Source: Patescibacteria group bacterium (GTDB lineage Bacteria; Patescibacteriota; Minisyncoccia; Ryanbacterales; GWA2-47-10b). Taken from it: a DNA stretch of 64,000 nt. The translations under genes were made by a program, and so were the position numbers. The notes beneath the pieces are model-generated. The model was not told the origin of the DNA and searched no databases. It saw only the letters and a program-made list of their open reading frames with translations. The stretch spans positions 14,464 through 78,463 of the forward strand of contig JBBTQY010000003.1 of NCBI GenBank assembly GCA_038065475.1, given 5' to 3'. Shown here piece after piece: positions 12,539 through 34,373 of the stretch. Numbering within the stretch: the stretch's first letter is position 1; each line of letters starts with the position of its first letter.

Positions 12539-12695
12539 ACGGACATATGCTAGAGCTCCGGCAAGCCGGAAACACAACACATTGTACTATGAGTATAAGG
12601 CACGAAGCATTTTTTGTCAAGTACCTGTCGGCTCAACGCTGTGCGTTAGTAAAGACAAGGCCCTAAATACCCGCTATGATGATAAAAATAGCTAT

Positions 12696-14036
12696 ATGAC
12701 TCTAGGCACCTATCGTACTATCTTGCTTGCAATTGGCGATGTCGCTGTTTTTTGGGCGTCACTCGTTATCACTCTCTTTTTGCGCTATGGTGCAGATCGA
12801 TTTAACGGCAATTTTGCGATCCACATCCTGCCATTCGGCGTCGTATTTGCAGTATGGATTTTAGTTTTCTATATTATCGGGCTCTACGAGGTTCGTATTA
12901 TCGGCAAACCAGAACAACTTTTTAAATATCTAACCTATGCCACGCTTTCGGGCGGCATTATCGCCATTGCTCTTTTCTATTTTGTACCGGCTTTTACGAT
13001 TACACCGCGCATCAATCTAATCCTTGATATTATAATCACATTTGCCCTTATGCTTGGTTGGCGATCACTCTTTGCCTTTGCGGGACGATCGACTGATAAA
13101 ATACGCGTACTCCTCGTTGGTTCTTCACCCGATATCGATGAGCTCGCACGCACCATCGAAGACTATCCTCACCTCGGCTACATCATCAAAGCGCGTTGCC
13201 CTGAAGTTACTCCTCATATCCTAAATCTCGTAAGCGAACATCAAGTCGATATTGTCGTTGCATCAAAAGAGAACCAAACAAACGACACCCTCTTGCAGGC
13301 TCTCTATGAAGCGATTCACCGCGGTATACGATTTGTCGATGTCTCCGTCTTTTATGAAATGATTTTGGGACGCATCCCCGTATCCCTCATCTCTAAAGTT
13401 TGGTTTTTGGAAAATATCGCTGAAGCCGAAAAACTTTTTTTTGAAATCAGCAAGCGCGCAGTCGATATCCTTTTTGCCCTTATTCTTGTGATCCCTACAA
13501 CTATCCTCATGCCGTTTGTAGCGGTTGCTATCCGCCTAAATTCACAAGGCCCAATATTTATCCGCCAAAAGCGTATAGGACGTATGGGCAAATCATTTAC
13601 CCTACTCAAGTACCGCACCATGTTAGCGCTCAGTCCTGACGGATCTGCAGAAACTCGGGGAGCCGAATGGTCTCAAGAGGGTGACAAGCGCATTACTGGT
13701 ATCGGTAAGATTCTTCGCTCAACACGTATCGATGAACTTCCACAGGTTTGGAACATTCTACGCGGAGACCTTTCGTTTATCGGTCCGCGACCTGAACGCC
13801 CTGAGTTTGTCGAGAACCTCCGCAAAGATATCCCCTATTATGATATGCGACACCTCGTGCGCCCGGGTCTCTCTGGCTGGGCACAAATCAACCCGCCTTA
13901 CTACTATGCCTCACACGACGATACGATCCTCAAGCTTCAATACGATTTGTACTACATAAAAAATCGAGACCTGGGCCTCGATCTCTCCATCGCTCTCAAA
14001 ACATTGATGGTTATGCTCTCACGCCAGGGACGCTAA
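12696..14036 (+). CDS. Polyprenyl-phosphate sugar phosphotransferase (bacterial sugar transferase, WbaP/EpsB-like initiating PGT)
   Basis: C-terminal catalytic domain RQKRIGRMGKSFTLLKYRTM...DELPQVWNILRGDLSFIGPRPERP. Start set at the first ATG (MTLGTYRTILL) because the track start at 12582 is a TTG. Confidence 0.85.
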   Translation: MTLGTYRTILLAIGDVAVFWASLVITLFLRYGADRFNGNFAIHILPFGVVFAVWILVFYIIGLYEVRIIGKPEQLFKYLTYATLSGGIIAIALFYFVPAFTITPRINLILDIIITFALMLGWRSLFAFAGRSTDKIRVLLVGSSPDIDELARTIEDYPHLGYIIKARCPEVTPHILNLVSEHQVDIVVASKENQTNDTLLQALYEAIHRGIRFVDVSVFYEMILGRIPVSLISKVWFLENIAEAEKLFFEISKRAVDILFALILVIPTTILMPFVAVAIRLNSQGPIFIRQKRIGRMGKSFTLLKYRTMLALSPDGSAETRGAEWSQEGDKRITGIGKILRSTRIDELPQVWNILRGDLSFIGPRPERPEFVENLRKDIPYYDMRHLVRPGLSGWAQINPPYYYASHDDTILKLQYDLYYIKNRDLGLDLSIALKTLMVMLSRQGR

Positions 14037-16339
14037 CGATCTGGACTTGAAGAGGCGTCATTTAGTAAAGTGCCCAACTCCCCTTGCAACAATGGATTTA
14101 AGTCAAGCGTTTTTTCAGCGTAGAGGCGGGCACTTACCTTGTCGCCTGCCTCTGCAGACGTAAGTGCAATTACGCGATATAGCTCGGGCGACGGTGATGC
14201 CCACCGTGCAAACTCTTTCAAAAAGTGAAGACGCGCGGAAACATTTTTCACATATCGAGACAGTTGGGCAACGCGAGTAATTTCATCTCTACCAAAATTT
14301 GTCATATTGGGGAGTTTAGTATCTTTACGCATGTGCTCATCGAGCATACGTAGAGCCTCGTCCGGTTTATCAGCCAGTAAATACACCGCGAGGGCAACAT
14401 GCATCATCTCTTCCGATTGCGGAGCAAGCGCAAACGCACCACGAATAAGCTCTGCAGCGTCATCGGGGCGATTGCCCATTAAATAAAGTTCTGCAAAGGC
14501 AACATGGTTTTGTATGTACTGAGGAGCAATCGAAAGTGCCTTGCGATAAGCATCCTCTGCTGCACGAAAATCGGCTTCATTGTGTTTTAGGTTAAAGCGT
14601 ACAGCATAAAGACGCCCCAAAAAAAGCTGCCGTTTGGCGCTCTCGGGATAATGCCGCGTCTCATATTCAAACCCACGGATTGCATCATCGAGTAATGCCG
14701 CGGCAAGAACATGACTCTCACGCTCTAACACAACATTCATTACTTCGTTACCAAAGCGCTCGTGAAGCTCGAGTGTGCCGAACGTATCCAGATCCTCAGT
14801 ATAGGCAAGAGTTTTCCGTATCTCACCTAGTGGCGCACCACTACTGAACTCTTGCAGGGCCTGAAGAATACCACGCGCTGCTTGCATCGCAGGTATATTC
14901 ACAAAATATATGATGCTCATGACACTAATACCAACGCAAATCATGAGTATACCGTGCATAGTACTAATAGATTTTGAACGAATGCGCTTTGATTGTTGTA
15001 CGCTCAATAAACTTTGCGTGAGTGAATATAATGCCGCAAACCAAAACAATAATGCGAGATAGGTGCCAATCGTATCAAATACAAATGCGTTTTGTATAAG
15101 ATACGCGACTCCGGTACTAGCGAGGAATAGCGCAAGACGCCAATCAATCTTTTTTTGCTGTATGCCACGCCAAAGCGCAAAAAAAGCAGCGCCAAAAACA
15201 GCAAGATATGAAAAAAATCCTATACTGCCGGTGGCTACTAACCACTCGAGAAACATATTGTGCACACGATCAAACCATGGTTCGTTGCCGTGAAGTTCTG
15301 GATTGTAAAGCCGCGAATAGGGTTCGATAAAATTACCAGGACCCCAGCCTAACAATGGCCGCTCGAGAAACGCGCGCCATCCTATCCCCCAAATAAGTAT
15401 GCGAGGATCATTTTTTAGTGAGCTCGACGAGACGGTAACAAGACGCTCAAGTACCTCGACATGACGTGTCAGTATATTGTTTGGCTGATAAAAAACAAAC
15501 ACTGCCAGCAACACCAACGCGACAAACCCTCCTATAATACTTAACCGCACCCTACGAGAAGATGTTTTCAGTAAAAACCCGACAAGTACGACAAAAACAC
15601 CCGCCACAAAACCAATGAATGCTCCTCTGCTTGCTGCAATAAAAAATATATAGCCTTCGGCCACCAACACGGCGGTATATGCTACGCGAGCCCACACTTC
15701 TCGTGAATAGATAAGAAAGAAGAGTGTAATAAAAAAATGAAAAAGAAGATATTCGGCAAGATAAATTGAATTGCCAAACCATGCGTATGGACGGTATTCG
15801 CCTACAATGGCAACAAGACCGCGAGCCTGTAGCAACGCATAGAACGTCACAACAAGGCTAACAGCTAAAGATCCGTGGAAGAGATAGGCCCAATCACGAG
15901 GCGTACGCAATATATTTGATAACACAACAAATAAAGCTCCGAGATGCAGGTAGGTTACTAGTCCCTCCATGCGCTCGAAATTCGACCAAAAACTCATCGC
16001 GGGATCGGAGCCAAAAATCGTAGCTAAAGTTACGATGATGAGAAACCCGCCAAGAGCAAGGGTTAACGGACTACGCCGAAGCCGATATGCAGGATTAATG
16101 ACTGCAAGTATAAACCATACTCCCGTTATCAATTCGACAATAATGCGAAAAAAGAAATTCTTCCCGGTGATAAACGGGAAAAGCATACTTTGACTTACAA
16201 TCAAAGGGACACATAATAATACGCCTATCCCTATGCGCGCCGCCCATATAAGCGATCGCTCAAGAGTAATCATGTTACGTAGTATGCCATACCTTTCATC
16301 CTTGAGCGATATCGTGCCCATTGTCTGCACGAGTACCAT
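14033..16339 (-). CDS. O-antigen ligase (Wzy_C)-domain polytopic membrane protein fused to C-terminal TPR repeats
   Basis: About 12 TM helices with an AASRGAFIGFVAG ligase-type loop. The C-terminal 300 aa carry repeated TPR-like AxxYxxAL motifs. Confidence 0.75.
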   Translation of the reverse strand: MVLVQTMGTISLKDERYGILRNMITLERSLIWAARIGIGVLLCVPLIVSQSMLFPFITGKNFFFRIIVELITGVWFILAVINPAYRLRRSPLTLALGGFLIIVTLATIFGSDPAMSFWSNFERMEGLVTYLHLGALFVVLSNILRTPRDWAYLFHGSLAVSLVVTFYALLQARGLVAIVGEYRPYAWFGNSIYLAEYLLFHFFITLFFLIYSREVWARVAYTAVLVAEGYIFFIAASRGAFIGFVAGVFVVLVGFLLKTSSRRVRLSIIGGFVALVLLAVFVFYQPNNILTRHVEVLERLVTVSSSSLKNDPRILIWGIGWRAFLERPLLGWGPGNFIEPYSRLYNPELHGNEPWFDRVHNMFLEWLVATGSIGFFSYLAVFGAAFFALWRGIQQKKIDWRLALFLASTGVAYLIQNAFVFDTIGTYLALLFWFAALYSLTQSLLSVQQSKRIRSKSISTMHGILMICVGISVMSIIYFVNIPAMQAARGILQALQEFSSGAPLGEIRKTLAYTEDLDTFGTLELHERFGNEVMNVVLERESHVLAAALLDDAIRGFEYETRHYPESAKRQLFLGRLYAVRFNLKHNEADFRAAEDAYRKALSIAPQYIQNHVAFAELYLMGNRPDDAAELIRGAFALAPQSEEMMHVALAVYLLADKPDEALRMLDEHMRKDTKLPNMTNFGRDEITRVAQLSRYVKNVSARLHFLKEFARWASPSPELYRVIALTSAEAGDKVSARLYAEKTLDLNPLLQGELGTLLNDASSSPDR

Positions 16340-16360
16340 ACAGTATATTGCATAGTATCG

Positions 16361-17788
16361 ATGCCTGATTCACTTATAACAAAACATAGATCCGCTCTTC
16401 TCCTCATTCTGTATCTTGTTGTGCTCTTCAATATTTTTTGGAGTCCCACGGGGTCATTTGTAGGTACACCAAAATATTGGTGGGACGAAAGTTTTGCTAT
16501 TGAGACGGCGCGTACGATACTTGAAATCGGGCGTATCGACGTAACGGTAGCCCCCAACACTCCATCCAATATCGCCGTTGCCCTCAACGCAAACGGCTTC
16601 CCTCTGACACTGCCACTTGCGGGCATTTTCTCGATCTTCGGCATCAGTCTTTTGGTCGCGCGTGTGTATATGATCTTTTGGATTATCGGGGTGCTCGTGA
16701 TGTTGTTTTATACAATAAAAAATTTTTTTGACTGGGAGAGCGCTTGGTGGGGTACACTCCTTGTGGCGACATTTGCTCCATTTTACGCAAACGGAAAAAC
16801 GGTGACCGGCGATATGCCTGGAATATTTTTTTTCCTACTCGGCATTCTTCTCGTAGGCATTCAGAAGAAATATACCTTGGGAGGCGTAGCGTTTGGGCTC
16901 GCGTTTGCCGCAAAAACTTCCCTTTTCCATATGGTATTCCCTGCTATCGCGATTGCCCTTGTGATAACCGAAAGATACGGCGCGTGGAAACCGCTCATCC
17001 GAGTCACTCTCGGATCCAGCGTCGTTGTCGCGGCATGGCTCTTACTTCTCCTGCCTCACCCCTACTCTCTTGCCAATCTTTCTCCTGCTATAGAATTTTA
17101 TAAGCATCCCATCAGCAAAGCCTCTGTCCTACAAGCACTACCGGAGAGTCTTAGTATATTTTTTTCAACCACTATTTTGTATGTCATTCTTTTGACAGTA
17201 ATCACTATAGCTGCATTTTTGCGAAAGCCAGCATTATCAAAAGAAACTCGTATATTTCTGGCGTTTATCGCCTCATATATCCTCTTACAATCAATCGTCT
17301 TTGTACGAAGTCCGGGATGGTACCGGTATCTCCTCGGCGTTGAGATGGTGTTGCTCACCCTTCTCTTCCCCGCACTCATGCGCCTTCGCTCGCGCACCGA
17401 GGTATCAAAAAAAACAATCGCATTGGGACTTACAGTGCTCGTAGCATTTCAATCGGGTCACTATCTTTTCTTTTCAAACATCTTCTCGCGACAAAACCCT
17501 ACACAAGTTTCCAACATCCTCAACGAACTCCTCGTGAAAGAACCTGGAAGCACAATAGGATTTATCGACGCACCAACCGAAGCGGCACTCATCCCCGGTA
17601 ACCGTAAATATCATTATCTCCGTGTAGGAGGCGGCACCTATGCAGGAGTTCACCCGCTCACACTACCCCCAGCACTTCAACCAACCTATATATATACAAC
17701 CAACGCAAAAGCTGCGGCCTCACTCACAGAGTCCTATGAACGTATCACGGCAACCGACGGCGTCACGCTCTATCGAAAAAAACAATAA
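16361..17788 (+). CDS. Polytopic membrane protein, putative GT-C fold glycosyltransferase (ArnT/PMT-like)
   Basis: More than 10 TM helices, with WWDESF in the first extracytoplasmic loop (the DE-type motif of GT-C enzymes). Family assignment is tentative. Confidence 0.5.
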   Translation: MPDSLITKHRSALLLILYLVVLFNIFWSPTGSFVGTPKYWWDESFAIETARTILEIGRIDVTVAPNTPSNIAVALNANGFPLTLPLAGIFSIFGISLLVARVYMIFWIIGVLVMLFYTIKNFFDWESAWWGTLLVATFAPFYANGKTVTGDMPGIFFFLLGILLVGIQKKYTLGGVAFGLAFAAKTSLFHMVFPAIAIALVITERYGAWKPLIRVTLGSSVVVAAWLLLLLPHPYSLANLSPAIEFYKHPISKASVLQALPESLSIFFSTTILYVILLTVITIAAFLRKPALSKETRIFLAFIASYILLQSIVFVRSPGWYRYLLGVEMVLLTLLFPALMRLRSRTEVSKKTIALGLTVLVAFQSGHYLFFSNIFSRQNPTQVSNILNELLVKEPGSTIGFIDAPTEAALIPGNRKYHYLRVGGGTYAGVHPLTLPPALQPTYIYTTNAKAAASLTESYERITATDGVTLYRKKQ

Positions 17789-17789
17789 A

Positions 17790-18359
17790 CTATAGATCCT
17801 TCCGAGCCTCTCCAAATAAATTGAGGCCAAATTGCCAATAGGTCAGCGTCTGGGATGCGGGAGAAAAACCCGCTTTTGTCAGTGCTGCCGAGAGCTCTTT
17901 TTTTGAATAATATCGCTTGTGATCCAAAATCTCATCTTTATTGATAACACCCCACGAGGCAAGCATCTCAAGAAGTGGTTTGTTGCGCCATGTAGGTACT
18001 GTGATCACGACGCGTCCACCTGGTTTTAAAACACGATATACCTCGGAGAGCATCCCTGCCTCATCGCTAAAATGCTCGAGGGCAGCAAGAATGGTAACAA
18101 GATCAACGGTCGCATCCGGCAACGGAACCTTATCATCAAGCTCAAGCGCTTTGAGGGTATAGGCACCCCCCTCTTCTGCGGTAATATATTTATCAAACCC
18201 ATAACCGTGCTTTATTTTCCTTGAAAAATGTTTTAACAAAAACGCCTCTCTCCCGCAGCCGAGATCACAAAGAACACTCCCTTCGCGCACAAAACGTTCG
18301 ATTTTGCGGATACGAAACCTGCGCAACATCTTATCAAACGAGGTCCACTTACTTTCCAT
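17790..18359 (-). CDS. Class I SAM-dependent methyltransferase
   Basis: Motif I VLCDLGCGREAFL and motif LKPGGRVVITVP. Confidence 0.8.
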   Translation of the reverse strand: MESKWTSFDKMLRRFRIRKIERFVREGSVLCDLGCGREAFLLKHFSRKIKHGYGFDKYITAEEGGAYTLKALELDDKVPLPDATVDLVTILAALEHFSDEAGMLSEVYRVLKPGGRVVITVPTWRNKPLLEMLASWGVINKDEILDHKRYYSKKELSAALTKAGFSPASQTLTYWQFGLNLFGEARKDL

Positions 18360-19761
18360 ACCAAGATACTATACTACGGCGCACATGAAAGATGCCAACG
18401 GCAAAAAGCGTAAACATGTACGGCGTCACAGGATAGCGCAAGCGCGCATTGGCGACCGTACCTGTCAGAAAAGCGGTTACAATAACAATAGAGAGAAGAA
18501 AAAGGGCCTCCCAACGGTAATGCGTTTGCTGCCACGTCACGTATAGAGCCCCGTACAACATCACTATACATATACCCATCCATGCCAAAACACCAAACCC
18601 GTATACCGTGAAATTGATGCCCCGAGTATTCCGTAACTCACGAAATATACCCCCCACGCCTTCTGTCAAAAACAATTTGCTTATGTGCGGAGATGATCCC
18701 CATGAGAAACCCATCTTGCGCGCCGTATCGGTAAATCCATCTGTTATAAAAAATGGGATCGTCTTGATAGTATAAAATTTTGCAAAAGACGTAGGATCCT
18801 CACGGATAATGCCGAGTGCAAAATCACGCACAACACTCGATTCTCGCAATGTCATAGTAGAGATAGTAACGCCAGTTTGTACAGCAAGCTTTGCCCGCAA
18901 AATATCTGAAGCCTCTGCATCCGAGATGCGATGCGTATATGCATAAAACAAAGTAGCATCATAAGAAAAAAGTTTGCGCACTGAGACGTCAGAAAGACCG
19001 ATGGTATCAAACACCAATACGTTACGTGCGATCCACGGTGTAAGTGCAACCACACAACAGAGCGCCACTACCACGCCCCTGGCAAATTGTTTTTTAAAAA
19101 ACAAAAACCCTATAACGATGCCGGCAACAATCAACCCAATAGGCCTTATAAGCGCAGCGCATCCTAAAAGCACCCCCACATGCCAAGCAACGCCATCCTT
19201 TTTTAAAACACTATACACTGCCCATACAAGAAAAAAAGTAAACACGCTCTCGCTCAGCACAATATTCGATAAATATATGCCCGAGGGTTCGAGTGCAAAC
19301 ATCAACGCAGCTATTAGGCTAAATTTTTCAGTAACAAAAAATCGCGTAATTCGATATACGAGCACTGCCGAAATGCCCGCAAGGATATTTTGTATAACCG
19401 CGACAGAAAAGAAGGAGCGAAATATAAGCAAACACAATGCGATGAACAAAGGATACCCCGGCGTACGAAATGCATCGGGCGCAAAAGGAGCTGAGTACGA
19501 TAAAGAAAACGTTCCGTGCTCCAAAATATTATTCGCAAGGTGTGCATATCCCATCGAGTCCGTCCCTGCAATTGGCATCTCGGCGCGTCCGGTCGCAGAC
19601 AATGCTATAAGCGCAACAAATACTATCATGCGCGCAAAAAACGCTATGCAAAAAATAATTATCTCTTTTCGCGATACTTGGTGAATGCTCAAATATCTGC
19701 GCAGGCGATCAGCTATAATTTGCATCATCTTTTTTACATACAAAAACAAGGTCATACCCAA
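18349..19761 (-). CDS. ArnT/PMT-family (GT39/GT83-like) GT-C membrane glycosyltransferase
   Basis: GTDSMGYAHLANNILEHGTFS...PGYPLFIALC matches the family's N-terminal DxxY...PxYP loop region. Many TM helices follow. Confidence 0.7.
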   Translation of the reverse strand: MGMTLFLYVKKMMQIIADRLRRYLSIHQVSRKEIIIFCIAFFARMIVFVALIALSATGRAEMPIAGTDSMGYAHLANNILEHGTFSLSYSAPFAPDAFRTPGYPLFIALCLLIFRSFFSVAVIQNILAGISAVLVYRITRFFVTEKFSLIAALMFALEPSGIYLSNIVLSESVFTFFLVWAVYSVLKKDGVAWHVGVLLGCAALIRPIGLIVAGIVIGFLFFKKQFARGVVVALCCVVALTPWIARNVLVFDTIGLSDVSVRKLFSYDATLFYAYTHRISDAEASDILRAKLAVQTGVTISTMTLRESSVVRDFALGIIREDPTSFAKFYTIKTIPFFITDGFTDTARKMGFSWGSSPHISKLFLTEGVGGIFRELRNTRGINFTVYGFGVLAWMGICIVMLYGALYVTWQQTHYRWEALFLLSIVIVTAFLTGTVANARLRYPVTPYMFTLFAVGIFHVRRSIVSWYGK

Positions 19762-20461
19762 AAAATTTCATCCCTGGGATCTTGCAGAGGAACTGATCGA
19801 GTGCAAACATAGTATCACCCCCAAACAAACGGTAGAAAACCTTGGGTATCAAGCCAAACCCATACCACCGCTCGACGGAAAGACCGTGACGACGAGCGAG
19901 CGTATGTGCTGCAAAAACTGTCATCGTATTGAGTTGCCGACCGCGCATGCGATACCACAACTTCGCAAAAATCCGATAATTGAATGCATTGCCGTGAATA
20001 TTAAAAATAAAAATGCCATCCTCCCGCAATTTTGGAACGAGAACTTTAAGTGCAGCATCTCGGAGTACTGGCTGTGCGTTGAGAAAAAATCGGAATGCGG
20101 TAATAACATCAAACTCCTCTCCAGCTAAACTGTCCTCAACGGTGATATCAGCCTCGATAAACTTTGCTTTTTTTGTTTTTTCCTTGGCACGCACAAGCAT
20201 GTCGGACGACATATCAACACCGACCGACTCTTTAAAAGAGTCTTCAAGAAACGCAATGATGCGCCCGGTACCCGTCGCGAAATCTAAATATCGCGTACGA
20301 CGACCCTCCTCTATGCACTTTATCTCTGAGGCTAATATTGCCCGCTCATAACGCCAAAGCCAATCATCATAGGAGTTTTGACGATAGATAACCTCATCAT
20401 ACTGCGTCGTCTTTCGTTCACCGAGATGGGAAAGGCGGTAATCTTTCATACTGTGAGACAT
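19709..20461 (-). CDS. Class I SAM-dependent methyltransferase
   Basis: YLDFATGTGRIIAFL motif I. Overlaps the upstream GT-C gene by about 50 nt. Confidence 0.8.
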   Translation of the reverse strand: MSHSMKDYRLSHLGERKTTQYDEVIYRQNSYDDWLWRYERAILASEIKCIEEGRRTRYLDFATGTGRIIAFLEDSFKESVGVDMSSDMLVRAKEKTKKAKFIEADITVEDSLAGEEFDVITAFRFFLNAQPVLRDAALKVLVPKLREDGIFIFNIHGNAFNYRIFAKLWYRMRGRQLNTMTVFAAHTLARRHGLSVERWYGFGLIPKVFYRLFGGDTMFALDQFLCKIPGMKFFGYDLVFVCKKDDANYS

Positions 20462-20530
20462 AACGTCTCTAGCATACCAAAGAGTTATCGTGCGTGGAAC
20501 AGCTATATGTTTTTATGCTAGCATTGAAAA

Positions 20531-22894
20531 ATGATAAATCGCGTTTTTCGCCGTCGTACCATCCTTATCTTAGGGGTAGGGATTTTTCTCCTTTTTCTAC
20601 TTATATCGATCATGTCACCCAACGCCACTGAAAGATGGCAATCACCAATCTACCAACTCGCAATACATACCTACCGATCGATAGAAAAACTACAGGATAT
20701 GCCGTATTTACCTTATCTTGTCCGCAAAAATAACCTTTCCACATATGATATTGTTATCGATCCGCAAGACATAACTGCTATGAATGCTGGGTTGCCAAAA
20801 GATATGGTGAAGGGTCGCCTCCTTGACGAACATAAAGTGCGCATAAACGCACTTTTTCAAACCACTCAATACGAGAGTAAAGTTAAAATACGTTATCGAG
20901 GACGCGGACCAAATCACTGGAATTCTCTAAAAAAATCCTATCACGTAGATTTTCCAGACGAACAACCGTTCAATAGCTTTGAAAGTATTAAATTTAATAT
21001 TCCTGAGGATCGTGGATATGCAGTGGAACCACTCAACTTTTACCGAGCAGAAAAATTTGGCATGGTCGCGCCACAACCATGGTTTACGAATCTTAAATTA
21101 AACGGACAAGCCATGGGCGTCTATATCGCAATCCCTCACTGGACGACGACTTTAATTGAACACAATAAGCGGCCTGAGACGAGCAACATCTTTGGCATTA
21201 AAGATATATCGCGAGAAGAAACATTAGAACGAAACTTTTTTGACCCCATAAATATTGATTATTGGGAAGATTACACAAAACAGGAGATCCCTCCTGCCGA
21301 TAAAAAAGCGTTGTCGGAGTTTTTATCTTTTGTCACTCATGCATCGGATACAGAATATACTCAACTCCTCCCCATCATGGTCGATATGGACGCTCTCTAC
21401 GGATGGCTTGTCATGAATACACTCGCAGCCTCCACCCATCAAAATCTGCACGTCAACATTATTCTTTTTCGAGATACAAGCACGGGGAAATTTCAGCCCA
21501 TTCCGTGGGACACGCAACTCTACCCCTACGAACCCATGCATCTTGAATCTCATCCGCTAATTGGACGCACGCTCTCGGTACCTGCGTTTCGCAGGGAATA
21601 CTTGCGACGACTTGCTGCATATACTACAAAAGAAAACCTAGCCGATGACCTTGCATTTTACGATGCCCAATGGGAATCAATACGCATTCCACTCTATCAA
21701 GACTTTGCAAAAGCACCGCTCAATACAGAAATACGCGCTTCGCGCATGCGATCGCGCGAACTGATCGAAAAAAACTTTTCTACCGTACAAGAACTATTAG
21801 AAAAAAATCCTGAAGATCTTTTTGTGGGTATGACTGAAAAATATTCCACCGAACCTCTTACCCTCTCCCCTCTTCATGCAGGAGCAACCACACCTATAGA
21901 TGTGTTTATCAAGAGTCACCCACAATTCTATCTTGAGGGACCCGATACGGTCGCGGTAGGGCCAGGAACAATCACAGTCCCATCGACAATCACGATCCCC
22001 CAAAACTATCGACTCGTCATAAAACCAGGGACACGTATTCTCTTGGGCTCTGATGCATCAATTATTTCATTTAAGTACCTTACAGCAATCGGCGCTGCTG
22101 CATCACCTATTCGTGTTGAGGGTATGTCGCAAAAACCATGGGGGTCACTCTTTGTATTAGATTCTCATAGCGGCACGAGCACCATTGCACATGCCCATAT
22201 CACCGGCGGATCCGGATTTCACCAAGACGGTATAACTGCGACGGGCATGGTCGCTCTTCACAACACTAATGCCGCGGTGAGCCACACGATATTTGAGAAC
22301 ACCCATGACGATGACGCACTCAATGTCAAGCATGGCTACGTAGAAATCAATGAAAATACTTTTCGCAATACTTTTGGTGATGCTATCGATCTTGATGCGA
22401 GTCGAGGGTTTGTGCATGACAATGCTTTTGGACATTTTGGCTTTGATGCTCATAAATCTGCGGGGCCAAATGGTGACGGTGTTGATATAAGCTTTAGCAC
22501 AATCGAAATCTCTGGAAATATCATCCGAGCCTGTGGCGATAAAGGAATTAGCGTTGGAGAGCAATCAGCGCCGCACATCATTAACAACCTTATAATGAAG
22601 TGCTCGATCGGCATTGCGGTCAAAGATCTATCAAGTGCCATCGTCAGTAATAATTATCTTATTGAAAATATGACCGGCCTTTCTCTCACCATGAAAAAAC
22701 CTCATTTTGGTGGTGGCGAGGCGACCTTAAAACAAAGCCTTCTCTGGAACAATGGGGAAGATCTTTCGATAGATCCATACTCTATCCTGCATGACGCCGG
22801 AGAAAACATCATAAAATCACGCAATGACAATCTCAAATTGCCATCCGATATACGTCCTCAATTTCAAGCGCCGCTCAGCGAGCTTCTTCGATAG
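20531..22894 (+). CDS. CotH-family (atypical kinase) domain protein with a C-terminal right-handed parallel beta-helix repeat region and an N-terminal membrane anchor
   Basis: KKSYHVDF, LNGQAMGVYIAIPHW and IPWDTQ resemble the CotH HMM core. The C-terminal 250 aa carry repeated NNxI/GIxV beta-helix motifs (NNLIMKCSIGIAVKDLSSAIVSNNYLIEN). Confidence 0.6.
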   Translation: MINRVFRRRTILILGVGIFLLFLLISIMSPNATERWQSPIYQLAIHTYRSIEKLQDMPYLPYLVRKNNLSTYDIVIDPQDITAMNAGLPKDMVKGRLLDEHKVRINALFQTTQYESKVKIRYRGRGPNHWNSLKKSYHVDFPDEQPFNSFESIKFNIPEDRGYAVEPLNFYRAEKFGMVAPQPWFTNLKLNGQAMGVYIAIPHWTTTLIEHNKRPETSNIFGIKDISREETLERNFFDPINIDYWEDYTKQEIPPADKKALSEFLSFVTHASDTEYTQLLPIMVDMDALYGWLVMNTLAASTHQNLHVNIILFRDTSTGKFQPIPWDTQLYPYEPMHLESHPLIGRTLSVPAFRREYLRRLAAYTTKENLADDLAFYDAQWESIRIPLYQDFAKAPLNTEIRASRMRSRELIEKNFSTVQELLEKNPEDLFVGMTEKYSTEPLTLSPLHAGATTPIDVFIKSHPQFYLEGPDTVAVGPGTITVPSTITIPQNYRLVIKPGTRILLGSDASIISFKYLTAIGAAASPIRVEGMSQKPWGSLFVLDSHSGTSTIAHAHITGGSGFHQDGITATGMVALHNTNAAVSHTIFENTHDDDALNVKHGYVEINENTFRNTFGDAIDLDASRGFVHDNAFGHFGFDAHKSAGPNGDGVDISFSTIEISGNIIRACGDKGISVGEQSAPHIINNLIMKCSIGIAVKDLSSAIVSNNYLIENMTGLSLTMKKPHFGGGEATLKQSLLWNNGEDLSIDPYSILHDAGENIIKSRNDNLKLPSDIRPQFQAPLSELLR

Positions 22895-24602
22895 CCCCTC
22901 GATACTCCCAAATCTCAATACGTTCGCGTAAGCTTGATTCGCCGAACGAAGCAACGGGTGCATACTGCTCTTGAACTAAAGTGCGAAATGCTGGGTAGTG
23001 CGAGAAAATATGCCTCTCCATCCGGCCATCAACAATCACGTATCGCGGGGGATCTGATCTAAGCATGTGCAATAATTCATTTGGAGATGGGAATGTGCCG
23101 GTGCGATTATCGGCGTTACCCGCAAAATGAATAGCGTACGACGTAAGATCTGCAACTGTACGACGATCTGCGATCACCACCGGCAAAGGATTTGCTGAAA
23201 AAATCCTCTCTTCCGAAGTCGTATGACTCTCGATAAACAATGCCGTGCTGTTAATTGTTTTTTGTGTCCACCACCAGCCTCCTACTTTGGGATCATAGAA
23301 CCAGGCAAAACTCGTCGCCCAAAATCCAATACCCACACATACATACAGCGTCTTTATCACTTTTGACTCGCGCCTCCAGTCAATGCGCGACAATACATAT
23401 CCGGTACCTAAAGCTATCGCGGGAATAAATTCACGAGGATATCCGGGTGCAAAAAAAGAATATGCCACAAAGAGTCCTGCTATCCATAATAACAACACCT
23501 CTACTCCGAAGTGGTCATGCGTATCCTGTTCGAAAAATTTTAAAATGCGAAACAGCAATCCAAACGCAACAAGGGAAACAATAAAAAGTGATAGAAATAC
23601 TAAGTGTCGAAATGACCCAGACGCGATAATGGTGAGCGTATGCACAACAAACGACCCGATAAAAATCAAAAGTATTCCAAGTACAAGCGCATTACGAATA
23701 CTCCTTGTACGCGCGAAAAACATACGGACCGCAATAACAAGAAACCCGACCAGCCCCACAAATAAAAGACCTCCTTGTATCGCCACGCCTTCAACAAACG
23801 TCAACAGCCAATCGCGAGCAAATAAATACCATGAGAATGTAGTACCGGAAATCTCAGCTTTTGTTGCCTGTACTGAAAATACAACAAAAAGATCGAGCCA
23901 ATACGTAACGGCTCGATCCCAGTGATGAAAAGCTGTGTAAAGAAAAACCGGCAAGAACCCAGCGAGAAATCCAACAACAATCATACTTGCTGATTCAATA
24001 TACCGCCATATATTCGACCGTGCGCGCCAAAAAGTAAGTATGACTAAAAGACCGATGGTCAGTGCCATTGCAAGGATAGATTGCCGCTCGATATACCCTA
24101 CACCAAGTGCAGCACCCGACAATATAAACCACCGCCTGTCACCACGTACTCCACGTATCGCCCCAAAAAGGGCGAGCATTGCCATAAGAATGGTCAATGA
24201 CTCCGTCTTAATAAAATGACTATTCCAAAGCGTATAAGGCACAAGCGCATGTATCAACGCACCCGCAATAACTATTTTGCGCTCAAACAGCTCACGCCCC
24301 AATAAATACAACATTCCCGTGCAAAGCGCCGAAAATAAAAGTACTGGTATGCGAAATATAAATATTGATCTACCGAACAGTACCGCAGAAAGATTGATAA
24401 ACCAAGAAAGAATAGGTGCGCGCGTTGTGTAGTCAGCAATGGGTATTTCTCCACGCCCAATACGCAGTGCGTCTTGAACAAATCTACCTTCATCGCCACC
24501 TACCATAGTAAATGGGAAAACGAGAATCAGTGCGACAAACGCAACAAATGAAAGTAGCAGCGCTACTTGAATATCAGACAAGGCTTGCATACGTCGCATC
24601 AT
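22875..24602 (-). CDS. ArnT/PMT-like GT-C membrane glycosyltransferase
   Basis: Polytopic, with an N-terminal GGDEGRFVQDAL...PIADYTTRAPILSW loop. Start set at the internal ATG (MMRRMQALSDIQVALLL), which abuts the LAB_N stop. Confidence 0.65.
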   Translation of the reverse strand: MMRRMQALSDIQVALLLSFVAFVALILVFPFTMVGGDEGRFVQDALRIGRGEIPIADYTTRAPILSWFINLSAVLFGRSIFIFRIPVLLFSALCTGMLYLLGRELFERKIVIAGALIHALVPYTLWNSHFIKTESLTILMAMLALFGAIRGVRGDRRWFILSGAALGVGYIERQSILAMALTIGLLVILTFWRARSNIWRYIESASMIVVGFLAGFLPVFLYTAFHHWDRAVTYWLDLFVVFSVQATKAEISGTTFSWYLFARDWLLTFVEGVAIQGGLLFVGLVGFLVIAVRMFFARTRSIRNALVLGILLIFIGSFVVHTLTIIASGSFRHLVFLSLFIVSLVAFGLLFRILKFFEQDTHDHFGVEVLLLWIAGLFVAYSFFAPGYPREFIPAIALGTGYVLSRIDWRRESKVIKTLYVCVGIGFWATSFAWFYDPKVGGWWWTQKTINSTALFIESHTTSEERIFSANPLPVVIADRRTVADLTSYAIHFAGNADNRTGTFPSPNELLHMLRSDPPRYVIVDGRMERHIFSHYPAFRTLVQEQYAPVASFGESSLRERIEIWEYRGAIEEAR

Positions 24603-24603
24603 A

Positions 24604-24903
24604 TTATTCTGCGAACGCCCGAACTCCTCGCCGGTGAAGTACAATATTGCGTACATAGATTGAAAACGCAATCACCTGCCCAGCAAAAAAAACTGGATCT
24701 CTTGTATGGAGCGTATAAATAAAAATCATGACACTGCCCATAGCACTCAAGTACCAATACATAATGGGAATCGTACTCCTACCACTTCGCTCCGAATCAA
24801 TCCATTGGATCATGAGCCTCAAAAAAAAGAAAAATTGTCCTAAAAACCCCACGAGAACCCAAGCGTCAATCGTAAATCCTAAAATAGTAAAGGGAGCAAA
24901 CAT
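24604..24903 (-). CDS. Lipid-A-disaccharide synthase N-terminal domain (LAB_N) small membrane protein
   Basis: 99 aa with 3 TM helices. WYLSAMGSVMIFIYTLHTRDPVFFAGQ matches the LAB_N consensus. It sits next to the GT-C and GT2 genes, as is typical. Confidence 0.6.
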   Translation of the reverse strand: MFAPFTILGFTIDAWVLVGFLGQFFFFLRLMIQWIDSERSGRSTIPIMYWYLSAMGSVMIFIYTLHTRDPVFFAGQVIAFSIYVRNIVLHRRGVRAFAE

Positions 24904-24915
24904 GGTCCTATGGTA

Positions 24916-26004
24916 TTATCCTTGGGCTGTTTTCGCAATCGCACTATATACGCGCTGACTCATAGCGTCTTCGCTACAAAGACGCTCGAATAACTTATGC
25001 CCCTCGTGCATCACGTGCTCACGAATATCGGCATGATCGCGTATCCATAAAATTTTTTCTGCTAAAGCATTGGGGTCGTTGATGCGGCAAAAAAATGCAG
25101 TCTCACCATCATGAAAAAAATGCTCGACAACTGACACCTCGGGCGGGCCCGCGGTCAAAAACGGCTGGCCCATAGCGATTGTTTCGAAGGATTTATTGAG
25201 CAGATTCCGCCGCGCCTTTGGCGTATCGCCAAACATTCCGAGACAAAGATCGGCATCTTTACGTTGTGTAATCATTTCCTCATCAGAAAGACGCCTACTG
25301 ATAAGCTCCACATTTGAAAGCTTTAACTCCCGATGAAGCTTCTCAATCACCGAAGACAACTGCCCCTTACCTGCTATACGAAAAATAATATTGGTATCTT
25401 CCAACTGCTTTGCGGCGCGTAAGACGACATCGATCCCATGGACAGGACTTATCTCCCCGCAAAATTCGACGACGAATTTATCTTTATCAGCCGGCAATTT
25501 TTCTTGTACCCGTGGATAAAAAATGGTGCGATCTGCGCACATAGGAATCTCTACAAATCGATCCCGTGGCGTACCAAACGTCTCATGAATTCGGTCAGCG
25601 TGTATTGGATCGTGCACAACGATAACTGTTGATTTAGTATGCGCCTGCCGATCAAGCCACCACACAACGCGACATCGCCACGAACCGTGCATAAAAAGTT
25701 TTCGATCAACACACGCCCCATCATGAAGCTCTGTTTGGAGATCAAAAATGATAGGTTTTTTTGTAAATAAACGCAAAAACGGAACAATCGGATGGCCCAT
25801 CCATCCTACAAAAAATATATCATGCGAATACATCAAAAAAGGTAATCGTAAAAAAATACTGAGAAAACGGAGTGGGAAAGAATTTTGCTTCGATGCCAGC
25901 AGCGTCGTCTGATGCCGCTTCTTAAGAATTCGGTATTTTATGCGATTACTAGGGTAGCTTGGCGATGCGCCGCAGACAAAAAGTATCTTAGGCCTCTCGA
26001 TCAT
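24916..26004 (-). CDS. Glycosyltransferase family 4 (GT-B, glycosyl transferases group 1)
   Basis: C-terminal EFCGEISPVHGIDVVLRAA...GDTPKARRNLLNKSFETIAMGQPFLT (EX7E-type region). Start at the internal ATG (MIERPKILFV). Confidence 0.8.
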   Translation of the reverse strand: MIERPKILFVCGASPSYPSNRIKYRILKKRHQTTLLASKQNSFPLRFLSIFLRLPFLMYSHDIFFVGWMGHPIVPFLRLFTKKPIIFDLQTELHDGACVDRKLFMHGSWRCRVVWWLDRQAHTKSTVIVVHDPIHADRIHETFGTPRDRFVEIPMCADRTIFYPRVQEKLPADKDKFVVEFCGEISPVHGIDVVLRAAKQLEDTNIIFRIAGKGQLSSVIEKLHRELKLSNVELISRRLSDEEMITQRKDADLCLGMFGDTPKARRNLLNKSFETIAMGQPFLTAGPPEVSVVEHFFHDGETAFFCRINDPNALAEKILWIRDHADIREHVMHEGHKLFERLCSEDAMSQRVYSAIAKTAQG

Positions 26005-26908
26005 ATTTAGGCACGGTCGGGTCTGAACGATTGATAATCTCAGCGATAAGCCCCATGAGAATAAACTGGAAACCAATCAATATACATACTGCCGCGAGTA
26101 TCGGGAGTGGCGTGCGGATAAAATGAGTATCTTCAAAAACCTTGAGCCAGAGCGCCCACATGCCTGCTACGGCGCCGAGCAAAAAACTTGCAAAGCCTAC
26201 GGCTCCAAAAAAATGCATGGGACGGCGCGCATATTTATAAAAAAAGTGAAACGCGAGCACATCAAGTAATACCTTAAATGTACGCGAAATGCCGTATTTT
26301 GAAGTACCGAACTTGCGGGACTCAAAAGCAACGGGCATCTCGGCAACGCGTGCACCTTCGCGTTTAGCATATGCCACGATCATGCGATGCATATCACCCG
26401 TAAAATGCAGTCCTTCTAGAATCTCACGACGATATATCTTGAGCGTGCAACCATGATCGTGTAAGTGCACGCGCGTCACCAGCGAGATAAGGCGATTGGC
26501 AATCGCCGACGGAATACGCCGAGTAAATAGTTTTCCCTTCCAACGATCTTTACGCCATCCTGATACGATATCGTACCCTTCATCAAGCTTGGCTAGCAGG
26601 CGCGGAATATCACTCGGGCGGTTCTCGAGATCGCCGTCAAGCGTGATAATAACCTCTCCGCGGGATTCTCGCACGCCAACGCCCAATGCCGCAGTCTGGC
26701 CTGCGTTGCGTTTCAAACGAAGCAACAAAAGAGGCTTTATACCGCGCAATACATCGCTTGTTCCATCTGAAGATCCATCATCGACAAAAATAAGTTCGTA
26801 CGGTTTACCGAGAGCATCGAAAACGGAAATAAGCTCTTTATGCAACAAGGGAGCCGATTCCTTTTCATTATAGAGCGGCACAATAACTGAATACGTAGGT
26901 CGTTCCAT
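25988..26908 (-). CDS. GT2 polyprenyl-phosphate sugar synthase (Dpm1/ArnC/GtrB-like) with C-terminal TM helices
   Basis: YSVIVPLYNEKES...ELIFVDDGSSDGT...LDGDL motifs plus two C-terminal TM helices. Confidence 0.85.
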   Translation of the reverse strand: MERPTYSVIVPLYNEKESAPLLHKELISVFDALGKPYELIFVDDGSSDGTSDVLRGIKPLLLLRLKRNAGQTAALGVGVRESRGEVIITLDGDLENRPSDIPRLLAKLDEGYDIVSGWRKDRWKGKLFTRRIPSAIANRLISLVTRVHLHDHGCTLKIYRREILEGLHFTGDMHRMIVAYAKREGARVAEMPVAFESRKFGTSKYGISRTFKVLLDVLAFHFFYKYARRPMHFFGAVGFASFLLGAVAGMWALWLKVFEDTHFIRTPLPILAAVCILIGFQFILMGLIAEIINRSDPTVPKYDREA

Positions 26909-26929: not shown

Positions 26930-28246
26930 TCAAGAAAAAATCAAGCTTCCGGAACAAACTGCTTCTACTGCTTCTTTTACGTCAGTATAATGTGGATATT
27001 CTCTCAAGAGTACCTCACGCTCATCTTTGCAACTATATCCCGTCTTGACTCCGACAAATGCTATACCCGCGCGCTCTGCTGTTTTTGCATCGATAGTAGA
27101 ATCGCCAATCAACACACTTCGCGAGAGATCGATATTAAAATCTTTCACTGCCAACTCTATCATACCGATGCCAGGCTTTCGACACTCGCACGATACTTTT
27201 AACCCCTCCACCTCACCTGGGAACCCCTTTTCGGGATAATGCGGACACATATATATCGCATCTAACTTTGCACCTACAGCACCGAGTGTATTTTCAATCT
27301 TTATATTGATCTGCCTCGCTACTACATTAGTGACCAATCCCTTAGCGATCACTGGTTGATTCGTCACTAAAATTGCTAAATACTCCGTATCATTAATACG
27401 GCGTATCGCCTCTACAGCTTCCGGATACACATCACAATCCTCGGGGCGCGTAACACCGCCGATTTCTTTATTGATCACACCATCACGATCGAGAAAAATG
27501 GCGGGGCGCGGATACTCGCTGTTCATGCGAGATATCTTCCCCGCAGCGCAATCTCTCTCTGCTTCGCGCAAACGCTCAGGCGTACCAATATCTTTGAGAT
27601 ATTCAGCGGAATGATATGCGTATATCTCACCGCCATTTGCAAGAATACTTGGAAACACGTTTTTTTCGAGATCGGCAAAACCCTTAACTGGAATATATGA
27701 AAATATTTTTGGGGAAATAATGTATACGGACCCTACACTAAAATTTCCAACGAGCATGCCGGCATCACGGGGACGTGAATACAGCGCGGCAATTTTCCCC
27801 GACATATCCCGCTCAACGAGGTCGCTGTCATGCATATGATCAGTCGGGTGACCCAACACTGTCAGTGTTGCATTAGCGTGTTGTTGGTGCCATTTTTGAA
27901 ATCGTGGAATATTGACATCGAGCATGATATCGCCCGATAACAACAAAAAATCCTCGCGCATCTTATCGTGAAGCGCTCGCAACGCGCCAGCCGTGCCTTG
28001 CGGCTCATCTTCTGTAAGATACGAAATAGAAGCTCCCCACTGCAAACCATCATTACAATACTCGCGTATACTGCTTGCCTGATATCCCAGAAGTAATGTT
28101 ATATCTATAATACCATAACGTTTTAATAACAAAATCTGATGCTCAAGAATTGTTTTTCCTCCAATTAAAACAAGTGATTTTGGAGTATCTCGCGTGAGCT
28201 CCCCGAGACGTGTGCCACGCCCACCAGCTAAAATGACTGCTCTCAT
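26930..28246 (-). CDS. Bifunctional fusion: sugar-1-phosphate nucleotidylyltransferase (HddC-like heptose-1-P guanylyltransferase) joined to a HAD-IIIA D,D-heptose 1,7-bisphosphate phosphatase (GmhB-like)
   Basis: N-terminal MRAVILAGGRGTRLGELT...GTAGAL nucleotidyltransferase signature. C-terminal AIFLDRDGVINKE...CECRKPGIGM is the GmhB signature. Confidence 0.8.
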   Translation of the reverse strand: MRAVILAGGRGTRLGELTRDTPKSLVLIGGKTILEHQILLLKRYGIIDITLLLGYQASSIREYCNDGLQWGASISYLTEDEPQGTAGALRALHDKMREDFLLLSGDIMLDVNIPRFQKWHQQHANATLTVLGHPTDHMHDSDLVERDMSGKIAALYSRPRDAGMLVGNFSVGSVYIISPKIFSYIPVKGFADLEKNVFPSILANGGEIYAYHSAEYLKDIGTPERLREAERDCAAGKISRMNSEYPRPAIFLDRDGVINKEIGGVTRPEDCDVYPEAVEAIRRINDTEYLAILVTNQPVIAKGLVTNVVARQINIKIENTLGAVGAKLDAIYMCPHYPEKGFPGEVEGLKVSCECRKPGIGMIELAVKDFNIDLSRSVLIGDSTIDAKTAERAGIAFVGVKTGYSCKDEREVLLREYPHYTDVKEAVEAVCSGSLIFS

Positions 28247-29253: not shown

Positions 29254-29285
29254 TGAAGTTACCTTACGCTTTTTAGCGTATTTTT

Positions 29286-29322
29286 TCAATAAAAAATGGG
29301 CCGCGAAATGACTTCGCGGCCC
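29286..29322 (-). terminator. Rho-independent terminator of the radical-SAM gene
   Basis: 10-bp stem GGGCCGCGAA/TTCGCGGCCC 5 nt after the stop codon, followed by ATTTTTTATT on the minus strand. Confidence 0.6.
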
Positions 29323-29326
29323 CGTG

Positions 29327-31300: not shown

Positions 31301-31342
31301 CAGTACTTTCCTCCTTTCATTTTTTTAAGGTTCGTACTGGTG

Positions 31343-31371
31343 TTCCTGTGTCAATAAACCAATAAAATAGT
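31343..31371 (-). promoter_or_regulatory. Putative sigma70-like promoter TTGACA-N17-TTTATT for the radical-SAM gene
   Basis: Consensus -35 with a 17-nt spacer, about 35 nt upstream of the SD and ATG. It lies between an upstream terminator and the gene. Confidence 0.4.
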
Positions 31372-31390
31372 ATTTTGTCAATATTCCTCA

Positions 31391-31424
31391 AAAAGAAAAG
31401 CAGGGGCCCCGTGAGGAGTCCCTG
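31391..31424 (-). terminator. Putative intrinsic terminator after the methyltransferase gene
   Basis: GC-rich hairpin CAGGG-(GGGGCCCC-containing loop)-CCCTG followed by CTTTTCTTTTT on the minus strand. Confidence 0.35.
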
Positions 31425-31448
31425 ATGTTTGATGGCGTGCCTTTTTTT

Positions 31449-34312: not shown

Positions 34313-34344
34313 AAAGCGCCTCCTTTGTCAACGAGCTCATCTTG

Positions 34345-34373
34345 CTTATAGCAAGAAATGAGCCTCCAAACAA
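34345..34373 (-). promoter_or_regulatory. Putative extended -10 promoter (TTGTTT-N17-TGCTATAAG) for the Fcl-like gene pair
   Basis: Read from sequence. The same TTGCTATAAGCA motif recurs upstream of the gene at 39210. Confidence 0.35.

Follow-up and report, generated by a model that had tools for sequence, protein, structure and literature searches.

The window analysed here, a 64,000-nucleotide stretch of a patescibacterial genome (contig JBBTQY010000003.1, positions 14,464 to 78,463) from Hainich groundwater (well H41, 0.1 µm fraction), carries genes for membrane glycosyltransferases of the GT-C fold that repeatedly adjoin genes for class I S-adenosylmethionine (SAM)-dependent methyltransferases (MTs). 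The pairing is more than a coincidence of this one locus, for it is conserved in other genomes, and relatives of the two enzymes occur fused in one polypeptide. The explanation that we consider probable is that these genes form extracytoplasmic glycosylation modules of the Gtr/Arn type, to which the MT has been added as a fourth component, acting on a polyprenyl-phosphate sugar before it is flipped across the membrane.

Methyltransferases beside and fused to glycosyltransferases

The module genes, named below by the first of their coordinates, comprise GT-C enzymes, MTs, glycosyltransferases of families 2 and 4 (GT2, GT4) and two small proteins with few transmembrane (TM) helices; where the open reading frame (ORF) is longer than the probable gene, both are given.

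16361–17788, + strand: atypical GT-C, convergent with MT 17790 (PMT_2 25.3 bits)
17790–18359, − strand: class I SAM MT with the signature DLGCG...LEH...DHKRYY (Pfam Methyltransf_23/11; AlphaFold (AF2) model, mean local confidence (pLDDT) 91.9)
18349–19728 (ORF 18349–19761), − strand: GT-C between two MTs, 459 residues from the NCBI start (PMT_2 29 bits)
19709–20461, − strand: MT upstream of and overlapping GT-C 18349 (Pfam Methyltransf_31/25/11)
22875–24602 (ORF 22875–24671), − strand: GT-C of module 1, probable start MMRRMQ (PMT_2 60 bits; hhalign 93%)
24604–24903, − strand: LAB_N protein of 99 residues with 3 TM helices, candidate flippase of module 1 (Pfam LAB_N 92.8 bits)
24916–26004, − strand: GT4 glycosyltransferase (Pfam Glycos_transf_1)
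25988–26908, − strand: ArnC/GtrB-type GT2, putative polyprenyl-phosphate sugar synthase of module 1 (NCBIfam ArnC 164 bits, full length)
46208–46813, − strand: MT downstream of GT-C 46794 (Pfam; best NCBIfam match MftM, 53 bits against a cut-off of 200)
46794–48104, − strand: GT-C of the conserved MT, GT-C, MT triad (PMT_2 35 bits)
48108–48770, − strand: MT upstream of GT-C 46794 (Pfam)
48767–49135 (ORF to 49243), − strand: SMR/DMT-type protein with 4 TM helices, ArnF-like candidate flippase, probable start M37 (NCBIfam ArnF 39 bits against a cut-off of 99)
51641–52324, − strand: MT immediately after GT2 52317 (Pfam 92 bits)
52317–52988, − strand: DPM1/AglJ-type soluble GT2 (NCBIfam AglJ 149 bits, then dolichyl-P-hexose transferase, ArnC and PpgS)
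57750–59075, − strand: GT-C overlapping the stop of GT2 59072 by 4 nucleotides (PMT_2 42 bits)
59072–59767, − strand: DPM1/AglJ-type soluble GT2 (PDB: DPMS, the Pyrococcus Dol-P-Man synthase, 6e-21, and ArnC 1e-18; NCBIfam AglJ 123 bits)

The four GT-C/MT adjacencies listed by an earlier note on this DNA (17790/18349, 19709/18349, 46208/46794 and 48108/46794) are exact. Three are overlaps, of 11 nucleotides (18349/18359), 20 (19709/19728) and 20 (46794/46813), and in the fourth the genes stand 3 nucleotides apart (48104/48108). Shuffling the gene order yields a mean of 1.2–1.4 MT/GT-C adjacencies, as against the 4–5 observed (P ~0.02–0.03 for at least four, 0.002–0.005 for at least five). Class I MTs and glycosyltransferases are both abundant in crowded glycan islands, and the within-window statistic for at least four adjacencies is modest by itself, so that the pairing might be put down to coincidental clustering of common gene types; we hold this to be most improbable, however, because synteny is kept between proteins of 40–60% identity, several phyla show the same adjacency and domain fusions have arisen independently.

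The MT family typified by MT 17790 is large, with 620 representative clusters at E ≤ 1e-30 in an exhaustive profile search (clusters at 50% identity), and natural fusions were counted among the best 150 of these 620 representatives. There we find ten GT2::MT fusions, three GT-C::MT fusions (P0199 from Dojkabacteria, P0243 and P0259), one GT4::MT fusion (P0195) and two MT-MT tandems. In the GT-C::MT proteins the GT-C part is nearest to GT-C 18349 and the MT part nearest to MT 17790, and their domain order is that of the overlapping window pair, 18349 then 17790, run together as one polypeptide; in P0243 the matched MT region begins 5 residues past the end of the matched GT-C region, and the P0199 cluster holds a further fusion member of 639 residues, found on two contigs. 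GT2::MT proteins likewise recur, as a single protein of 418 residues at locus L031 and at 421 residues on several contigs.

Homologues of MT 17790 adjoin a DPM1-like GT2 as a rule, often in the company of a small 4-TM protein and a large polytopic one. Among contexts recovered by exact-protein look-ups, four of six MT genes lie directly after a GT2 gene, with large polytopic proteins or PMT_2 genes adjoining. We added 7 genome and 29 metagenome loci, including Gaiellaceae, Saccharibacteria, Chromatiaceae and Pseudodesulfovibrio, and measured GT2 distances by tblastn, ORF calling being unreliable at >70% GC (L019, L023, L027, L030). A DPM1/ArnC-like GT2 lies within 1.2 kb in 11 of the 14 de-duplicated loci that have at least 1.5 kb on both flanks, and within 100 bp in 12 of 27 de-duplicated loci; GT2 59072 is of the type that elsewhere partners with, and fuses to, this family. 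In one lineage, a 121-residue 4-TM gene resembling the SMR-like gene 48767 stands directly upstream of the MT (L018, L020, L021, L022, L024 and L028). Three loci (L009, L012 and L033) have a GT2, an MT and a polytopic protein with no further glycan gene recognised nearby, their neighbours having been scanned in part.

The triad of MT, GT-C and MT around 46794 is conserved in Ryanbacteria. Orthologues of MT 48108 across Parcubacteria share 54–89% identity, and in loci L047 and L049 the gene that follows is always a PMT_2 gene. The Ryanbacteria locus L047 reads cytidylyltransferase, MT::GT2 fusion, NUDIX, MT, PMT_2, MT, GT2, GT4, with identities of 61% to MT 48108, 39.5% to GT-C 46794 (295 bits), 51% to MT 46208, 63% to GT2 59072 and 46% for the GT4; locus L049 reads MT, PMT_2, MT::GT2 fusion. 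The counterparts of the neighbouring genes MT 51641 and GT2 52317 are single MT::GT2 proteins in Ryanbacteria and L049 (468 and 519 residues). In Magasanikbacteria and on contig L005, from another member of the candidate phyla radiation (CPR), GT2, GT-C and MT genes are interleaved as in the window; Magasanikbacteria also have an orthologue of GT-C 57750 (208 bits) and, within cluster L003, a homologue of GT-C 16361. On L005 the GT2/MT/GT-C cluster includes an 818-residue fusion of a GT4 to a PMT_2 GT-C (1103–3559).

A further locus, that of P0044, runs RtcB, GT4, GT2, a 201-residue protein, MT, PMT_2, GT4, polysaccharide deacetylase, GT4. Its stretch from RtcB through GT4 and from GT2 to GT-C mirrors the right end of the window (57750–62422), with the difference that an MT_17790-type gene stands between GT2 and GT-C there, whereas GT2 59072 and GT-C 57750 overlap directly in the window, where the MT gene has apparently moved or been lost.

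Enzymes of the modules

Five GT-C genes like those of ArnT and PMT had been proposed, and the count holds: four exceed the PMT_2 Pfam gathering score of 26.1 bits, and the fifth, 16361, falls just under it and is recovered by hhalign against the family profile (90%), with its WDES motif on the invariant, presumably catalytic, Asp. All five reading frames are uninterrupted and encode 7–11 predicted TM helices with an acidic motif after TM1; the pseudogenisation that the earlier note had named as telling against its reading is seen in none of them. They share at most 30% identity, so the modules are old and distinct rather than recent repeats. Recent tandem duplication of the modules that the earlier note called repeated is ruled out.

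GT-C 18349 has homologues that are few and distant. A 25-sequence alignment of its family leaves D56, PGYP, RP, PW..RN and R428 invariant. Its AF2 model (pLDDT 89.7) matches, at Foldseek probability ≥0.9, GT-C-fold proteins or their relatives throughout: AglB, STT3, ALG9, ArnT, Pmt1, DPY19, AftA and subunits of the GPI transamidase and mannosyltransferase, with TM-scores of 0.3–0.5. Searched against the PDB as a sequence profile, the protein finds Pmt1 (2.8e-6, ~115 residues covered) as the sole solved structure at E <0.001, while PDB searches with single GT-C sequences returned nothing in one case and chance matches only in another. Together with the PMT_2 and hhalign matches, the modelled fold and the invariant Asp predicted to lie outside the membrane after TM1 place these proteins in the GT-C class. 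In NCBI the 18349 protein goes by the name 'glycosyltransferase family 39'. The PMT family profile PF02366 (gathering score 22.7) reaches no more than 20 bits, in one paralogue only; no MIR domain match was reported by Pfam in any of the five, and none of the window GT-Cs matches the NCBIfam ArnT models.

As the earlier note had it, three GT2 genes (25988, 52317 and 59072) are of the Dpm1/ArnC kind, with ArnC, AglJ, PpgS, DPMS and GtrB as best matches. GT2 25988 aligns over its whole length with ArnC in the PDB (2e-44), then with GtrB (3e-21) and DPMS (2e-16), and carries two C-terminal TM helices at 237–288. The NCBIfam matches of the GT2s, like the ArnF match of 48767, are all under the equivalog cut-offs, and homology makes the GT2s putative polyprenyl-phosphate sugar synthases.

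Two small membrane proteins are candidate flippases. The LAB_N protein that had been noted at 24604 is indeed there, its gene lying between GT2/GT4 and GT-C 22875 with its stop 1 nucleotide from the GT-C start; it would be the flippase of module 1. Upstream of MT 48108 lies the 4-TM gene 48767, earlier described as an ArnE/F-like subunit: ArnF is its best match, and the likeness goes no further than that, the score being far short of equivalog level. No GtrA-family protein was identified among the window genes scanned.

Seven class I MTs had been counted. Six (17790, 19709, 40519, 46208, 48108 and 51641) clearly pass their Pfam gathering scores, and the seventh is weak:

31449–32423, − strand: candidate seventh class I MT (Pfam Methyltransf_25, E 0.027; motif EFGCGSG)
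40519–41175, + strand: class I MT with degenerate motif I (Pfam match to the C-terminal half only)

The features of the class are present: the AF2 model of MT 17790 has the alternating beta/alpha order of a Rossmann-like fold, and the glycine-rich motif I is visible in 17790, 19709, 46208, 48108, 51641 and 31449. In 40519, a GTG-start ORF that overlaps the end of a Wzx gene, motif I reads ILGISG, and the enzyme may be divergent or partly decayed. The other finding that the earlier note had named as refuting its reading, that these are menaquinone or ribosomal RNA enzymes, is not borne out: no window MT comes near any curated NCBIfam cut-off for UbiE/MenG, rRNA or other named methyltransferases (best scores for UbiE/MenG 20–66 bits against 158–420, for RsmA 26 against 171 and for Erm 26 against 212), which rules out a quinone or rRNA methyltransferase identity. 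The nearest named match of MT 46208, MftM, is a sugar (oligosaccharide) O-methyltransferase.

Where the methyl group would be added

Assigning ten TM helices to the AF2 model of GT-C 18349 puts the conserved motifs all outside the membrane, and the K/R-rich loops and both termini inside. Given this predicted cytoplasmic C terminus and the short gap in P0243, a fused MT would lie near the cytoplasmic face of the membrane. In the scheme that we favour, the DPM1/ArnC-like GT2 would load a sugar onto polyprenyl phosphate at the cytoplasmic face; the MT, at the cytoplasmic membrane surface, would methylate that lipid-linked sugar once the GT2 had made it; the sugar would then presumably be flipped by a small membrane protein of the LAB_N or SMR-like kind; and the GT-C would move the (methylated) sugar to a polymer or protein outside. 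Because what the GT2 makes and what the GT-C takes as its donor would be one and the same, a polyprenyl-phosphate sugar, and both enzymes are found fused to this MT, methylation of the lipid-linked sugar before flipping is the most economical arrangement. The earlier note had proposed that methylated polyprenyl-phosphate-linked monosaccharides are flipped and then used outside; the Ryanbacteria triad synteny, the adjacency of MT_17790-type genes to GT2s and the fusions support this. What the analysis shows directly is the gene content, the intactness and fold of the enzymes, the kept synteny and the domain fusions; the methylation step, the MT substrate, the flippase roles and the identities of sugar, lipid and acceptor are inferred.

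Several observations weigh against this reading. The GT4::MT fusion and the MT-MT tandems show that polyprenyl-phosphate modules are not the only setting of the family, and the GT2::MT fusions fit methylation of a nucleotide sugar before transfer equally well. Within the window, GT-Cs 22875 and 57750 have no MT neighbour and that of 16361 is convergent only, so three of the five GT-Cs have none on the same strand; MT 17790 does not adjoin a GT2 here; and neither MT 19709 nor the candidate at 31449 has a homologue in the fetched loci, which leaves them with no comparative support. Elsewhere, the polytopic neighbours L009_555, L012_562, L042_497 and L033_565 are not tied to the PMT_2 family (hhalign <2%), and a Pfam scan of L009_555 and L012_562 gave no GT-C assignment; that of locus L006 reaches an hhalign probability of 67% only. 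The class I fold is silent on substrate, and the Foldseek and PDB-profile neighbours of the MTs are generic and give no clue to it. The similarity behind the putative roles of the LAB_N and SMR-like proteins is weak or indirect.

Such points leave room for the MTs to belong to the glycan pathway and yet act at another site: on the nucleotide sugar before the GT2, or on a lipid-diphosphate-linked repeat unit or finished cytoplasmic glycan, as in WbdD-like or WsaE-like capping, with proximity to GT-Cs reflecting operon packing. The island that holds the modules is rich in nucleotide-sugar enzymes and has a full Wzx/Wzy-type pathway, MftM acts on an oligosaccharide, and the fusions to GT4 and GT2 are compatible with such a role. 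We nonetheless judge it fairly unlikely, for a soluble substrate, or one unconnected with the GT-C donor, would hardly account for GT-C::MT fusions with a gap of a few residues, and the three loci of GT2, MT and polytopic protein, as far as their neighbours were scanned, offer no other recognised glycan gene. Sugar O-methylation, moreover, usually follows glycosyl transfer rather than taking place on the nucleotide sugar.

The modules of the window lie in an island of polysaccharide type. The MT family also occurs in three CPR type IV pilus loci (L006 2999–6423, L009 3279–7093 and L012 5096–8987; one from Saccharibacteria), beside the prepilin peptidase gene. Each includes a polytopic membrane protein of 555–650 residues; a DPM1-like GT2 accompanies it in L009 and L012, whereas the 5 kb searched in L006 have none. 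The arrangement hints at pilins glycosylated with a methylated sugar. The prepilin peptidase neighbour could also be taken to mean that the MTs modify something other than a sugar, such as a phospholipid, the polyprenyl carrier or a protein, whether pilin or one of the transferases, and their structural neighbours do include UbiG, Coq5 and a phosphatidylethanolamine methyltransferase. Such a substrate seems to us improbable: from lineage to lineage it is the DPM1-like GT2, and not the pilus genes, that recurs most consistently beside the MT, the fusions are to glycosyltransferases, and no curated methyltransferase cut-off is approached.

A methyl group added to the lipid-linked sugar need not persist. 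By analogy, it might be a transient handling tag, used for flipping or for hand-off to the GT-C and later removed: in the account of Lechner et al. (1985) given by a later paper (PMC4335974), the methyl of Halobacterium salinarum occurs on the lipid-linked glycan only, many of the cassettes here have no recognisable flippase, and the MT can be physically fused to the GT-C. With no demethylase or esterase candidate consistently present, two MTs around one GT-C suggesting a multiply methylated end product, and analogy alone behind it, we regard this possibility as distinctly improbable.

A more far-reaching form of the scheme that we favour, which we put forward as speculative and on the whole unlikely, would have the MT docked or fused at the cytoplasmic C terminus of the GT-C, in a single assembly that edits the donor inside and uses it outside. 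Methylation would then be the fourth step of a widespread bacterial pathway, the methyl perhaps being needed for translocation or hand-off, as a bacterial counterpart of the 'transient methylation' of Halobacterium, and type IV pili would be one possible CPR target.

Chemical modification of a lipid-linked sugar before flipping is known for ArnD and for DprE1/E2. A further case is the ORF13 system of Citrobacter youngae (PMC11127046), and for methylation itself there are AglP and Halobacterium, where the substrate is a dolichol-phosphate glycan (PMC4335974).

Among the systems with which the modules can be compared, the Arn pathway shares an ArnC-like GT2 (here 25988), an SMR-type flippase (here the ArnF-like candidate) and a GT-C transferase. 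ArnD edits the lipid-linked sugar on the cytoplasmic face before flipping by deformylation, whereas SAM-dependent methylation is proposed for the window; no equivalent of ArnA, ArnB or ArnD appears in the Pfam map of the window, which sets the modules apart from an Arn pathway proper. Lipid A we take to be an unlikely acceptor, given the envelopes of Patescibacteria. Actinobacterial O-mannosylation (Ppm1 with Pmt, GT39) likewise couples a DPM1-like GT2 to a PMT-related GT-C, as the Pmt1 profile match recalls; the known system has no methyltransferase, and the match in the window is partial and comes with no reported MIR domain.

The Gtr systems of Shigella and Salmonella (GtrA/GtrB/GtrC) and, in Gram-positive bacteria, CsbB/GtcA/YfhO, GacI-L and Lactococcus Csd follow the same scheme of GT2, small flippase and GT-C that the gene content of the window suggests (PMC11127046, PMC13390465), and several such modules can share one genome (PMC11127046, PMC13390465). 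They differ in that these two papers describe no methyltransferase component for them, whereas the window modules have MT partners; in the flippase, for which the window has LAB_N and SMR-like candidates and, among the genes scanned, no GtrA-family protein; and in their GT-Cs, those of the window being PMT_2-type with no close characterised relative.

In haloarchaeal N-glycosylation a SAM methyltransferase, AglP, acts on a polyprenol-phosphate-linked glycan before translocation, methylating a hexuronic acid in the lipid-linked tetrasaccharide with which AglB goes on to glycosylate Asn (PMC4335974). The soluble GT2s of the window score best against AglJ, which with AglD stands for the Dol-P glycosyltransferases of the haloarchaeal system. 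The donor there is a tetrasaccharide, and for the PMT_2-type GT-Cs of the window presumably a monosaccharide. In polyprenyl-phosphate-pentofuranose systems (mycobacterial decaprenyl-phosphoryl arabinose (DPA) with DprE1/E2; C. youngae ORF12–15, GT136), a lipid-linked monosaccharide is epimerised before its use by a GT-C (PMC11127046); these differ from the window in having an entry synthase dependent on phosphoribosyl pyrophosphate, a MATE flippase, and oxidation and reduction in place of methyl transfer.

Our literature searches found neither a methyltransferase-coupled GT2/GT-C system nor GT-C enzymes in Patescibacteria: the three-component framework is well known, and coupling to a methyltransferase, fusions included, was not found described in the literature searched. 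A generic 'class I methyltransferase' label thereby becomes a specific claim, that a family of no fewer than 620 clusters (at 50% identity) is the partner of DPM1-like GT2s and GT-Cs, acting probably on lipid-linked sugars. If so, methylation would join deformylation and epimerisation as a means of donor editing in polyprenyl-phosphate-sugar pathways, and the natural fusion proteins would be convenient reagents for enzymology and structural work.

The surrounding glycan island

Patescibacteria are ultrasmall episymbionts with genomes typically of ~1 Mb. In the window, the region from ~12.6 to 61 kb is a single envelope-glycan island of ~48 kb (Pfam and NCBIfam scans, ~60 ORFs), bordered by SecA, MurB and HPF at the left and by RtcB at the right; so large a share of a genome of this type spent on surface glycans suggests importance for the lifestyle. 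CPR envelope and pilus glycobiology is essentially uncharted, and a study of Saccharibacteria pili calls glycosylation in Patescibacteria 'unexplored' (PMC11623550). Window GC content is ~45%, rising to 54–55% (0.54–0.555) at 30–34 kb. Taken jointly with our explanation of the modules, it is probable that the island unites three parts: a lipid-diphosphate-linked repeat-unit pathway, unusual nucleotide-sugar pathways and several Gtr/Arn-type extracytoplasmic glycosylation modules. Beyond the module genes it includes the following.

12582–14036, + strand: Bac_transf phosphoglycosyltransferase, initiating, for a lipid-diphosphate-linked glycan (Pfam Bac_transf 194 bits)
14033–16339, − strand: Wzy_C membrane protein (O-antigen ligase, polymerase or O-oligosaccharyltransferase type) with C-terminal TPR (Pfam Wzy_C 76 bits and TPR; 14 predicted TM helices)
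20531–22894, + strand: CotH kinase-like protein, membrane-anchored, with C-terminal right-handed beta-helix (Pfam CotH 83 bits and Beta_helix)
26930–29226, − strand: NTP-transferase+HAD fusion with a GHMP kinase, both of a heptose-type nucleotide-sugar pathway, immediately upstream of module 1 (Pfam)
29327–31300, − strand: B12-binding radical SAM enzyme resembling KedN5-family C-methyltransferases (NCBIfam NF033712, 266 bits against a cut-off of 700)
39318–40574, + strand: Wzx-type flippase, Polysacc_synt (Pfam 62 bits)
51184–51678, − strand: NUDIX hydrolase (Pfam)
55619–57744, − strand: two GT4 glycosyltransferases (Pfam)
59845–60951, − strand: GT4 glycosyltransferase at the right edge of the island, RtcB next (Pfam)

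The repeat-unit pathway is represented by the phosphoglycosyltransferase, GT4s, a WcaA-type GT2, Wzx and the Wzy_C/TPR protein. That GT2, 43865, is WcaA/TuaG-type and not DPM1/ArnC-like. The O-antigen-ligase/TPR fusion of the earlier note is confirmed: the PF04932 match spans residues 225–379 of the protein, in the setting of a polytopic membrane protein.

The block at 26930–36456 also holds two epimerases and an E1 alpha/beta pair of thiamine enzymes, and suggests a pathway to a C-methylated or branched heptose or deoxysugar; the GHMP kinase ORF (28243–29910) is over-extended, its true start lying near 29226. The Chthoniobacter locus L008 likewise has GT2, MT and MT together with genes for a GHMP kinase, an NTP-transferase, SIS and HAD. 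Next to MT 46208 stand genes for a VTC-domain protein and a DUF4956 protein (44812–46211, + strand).

The NUDIX gene 51184 has a counterpart in position in Ryanbacteria L047, although no similarity between the two was detected; the Ryanbacteria NUDIX genes match the window gene at 36512 best, and 51184 has no match in the fetched loci. Beside it, the ~1.9 kb at 49244–51183 (GC ~0.50) carry a cupin gene (50735–51106) and compositionally odd long ORFs, and split a module (GT2, MT, NUDIX / MT, GT-C, MT) that is contiguous in Ryanbacteria, which is why this segment is possibly an insertion. The CotH-like gene lies between MT 19709 and GT-C 22875, and its product could phosphorylate surface glycans or proteins; the GT2/GT-C/MT cluster of Magasanikbacteria includes a homologue of it (L003 2436–4169; 27% identity, E 3e-51).

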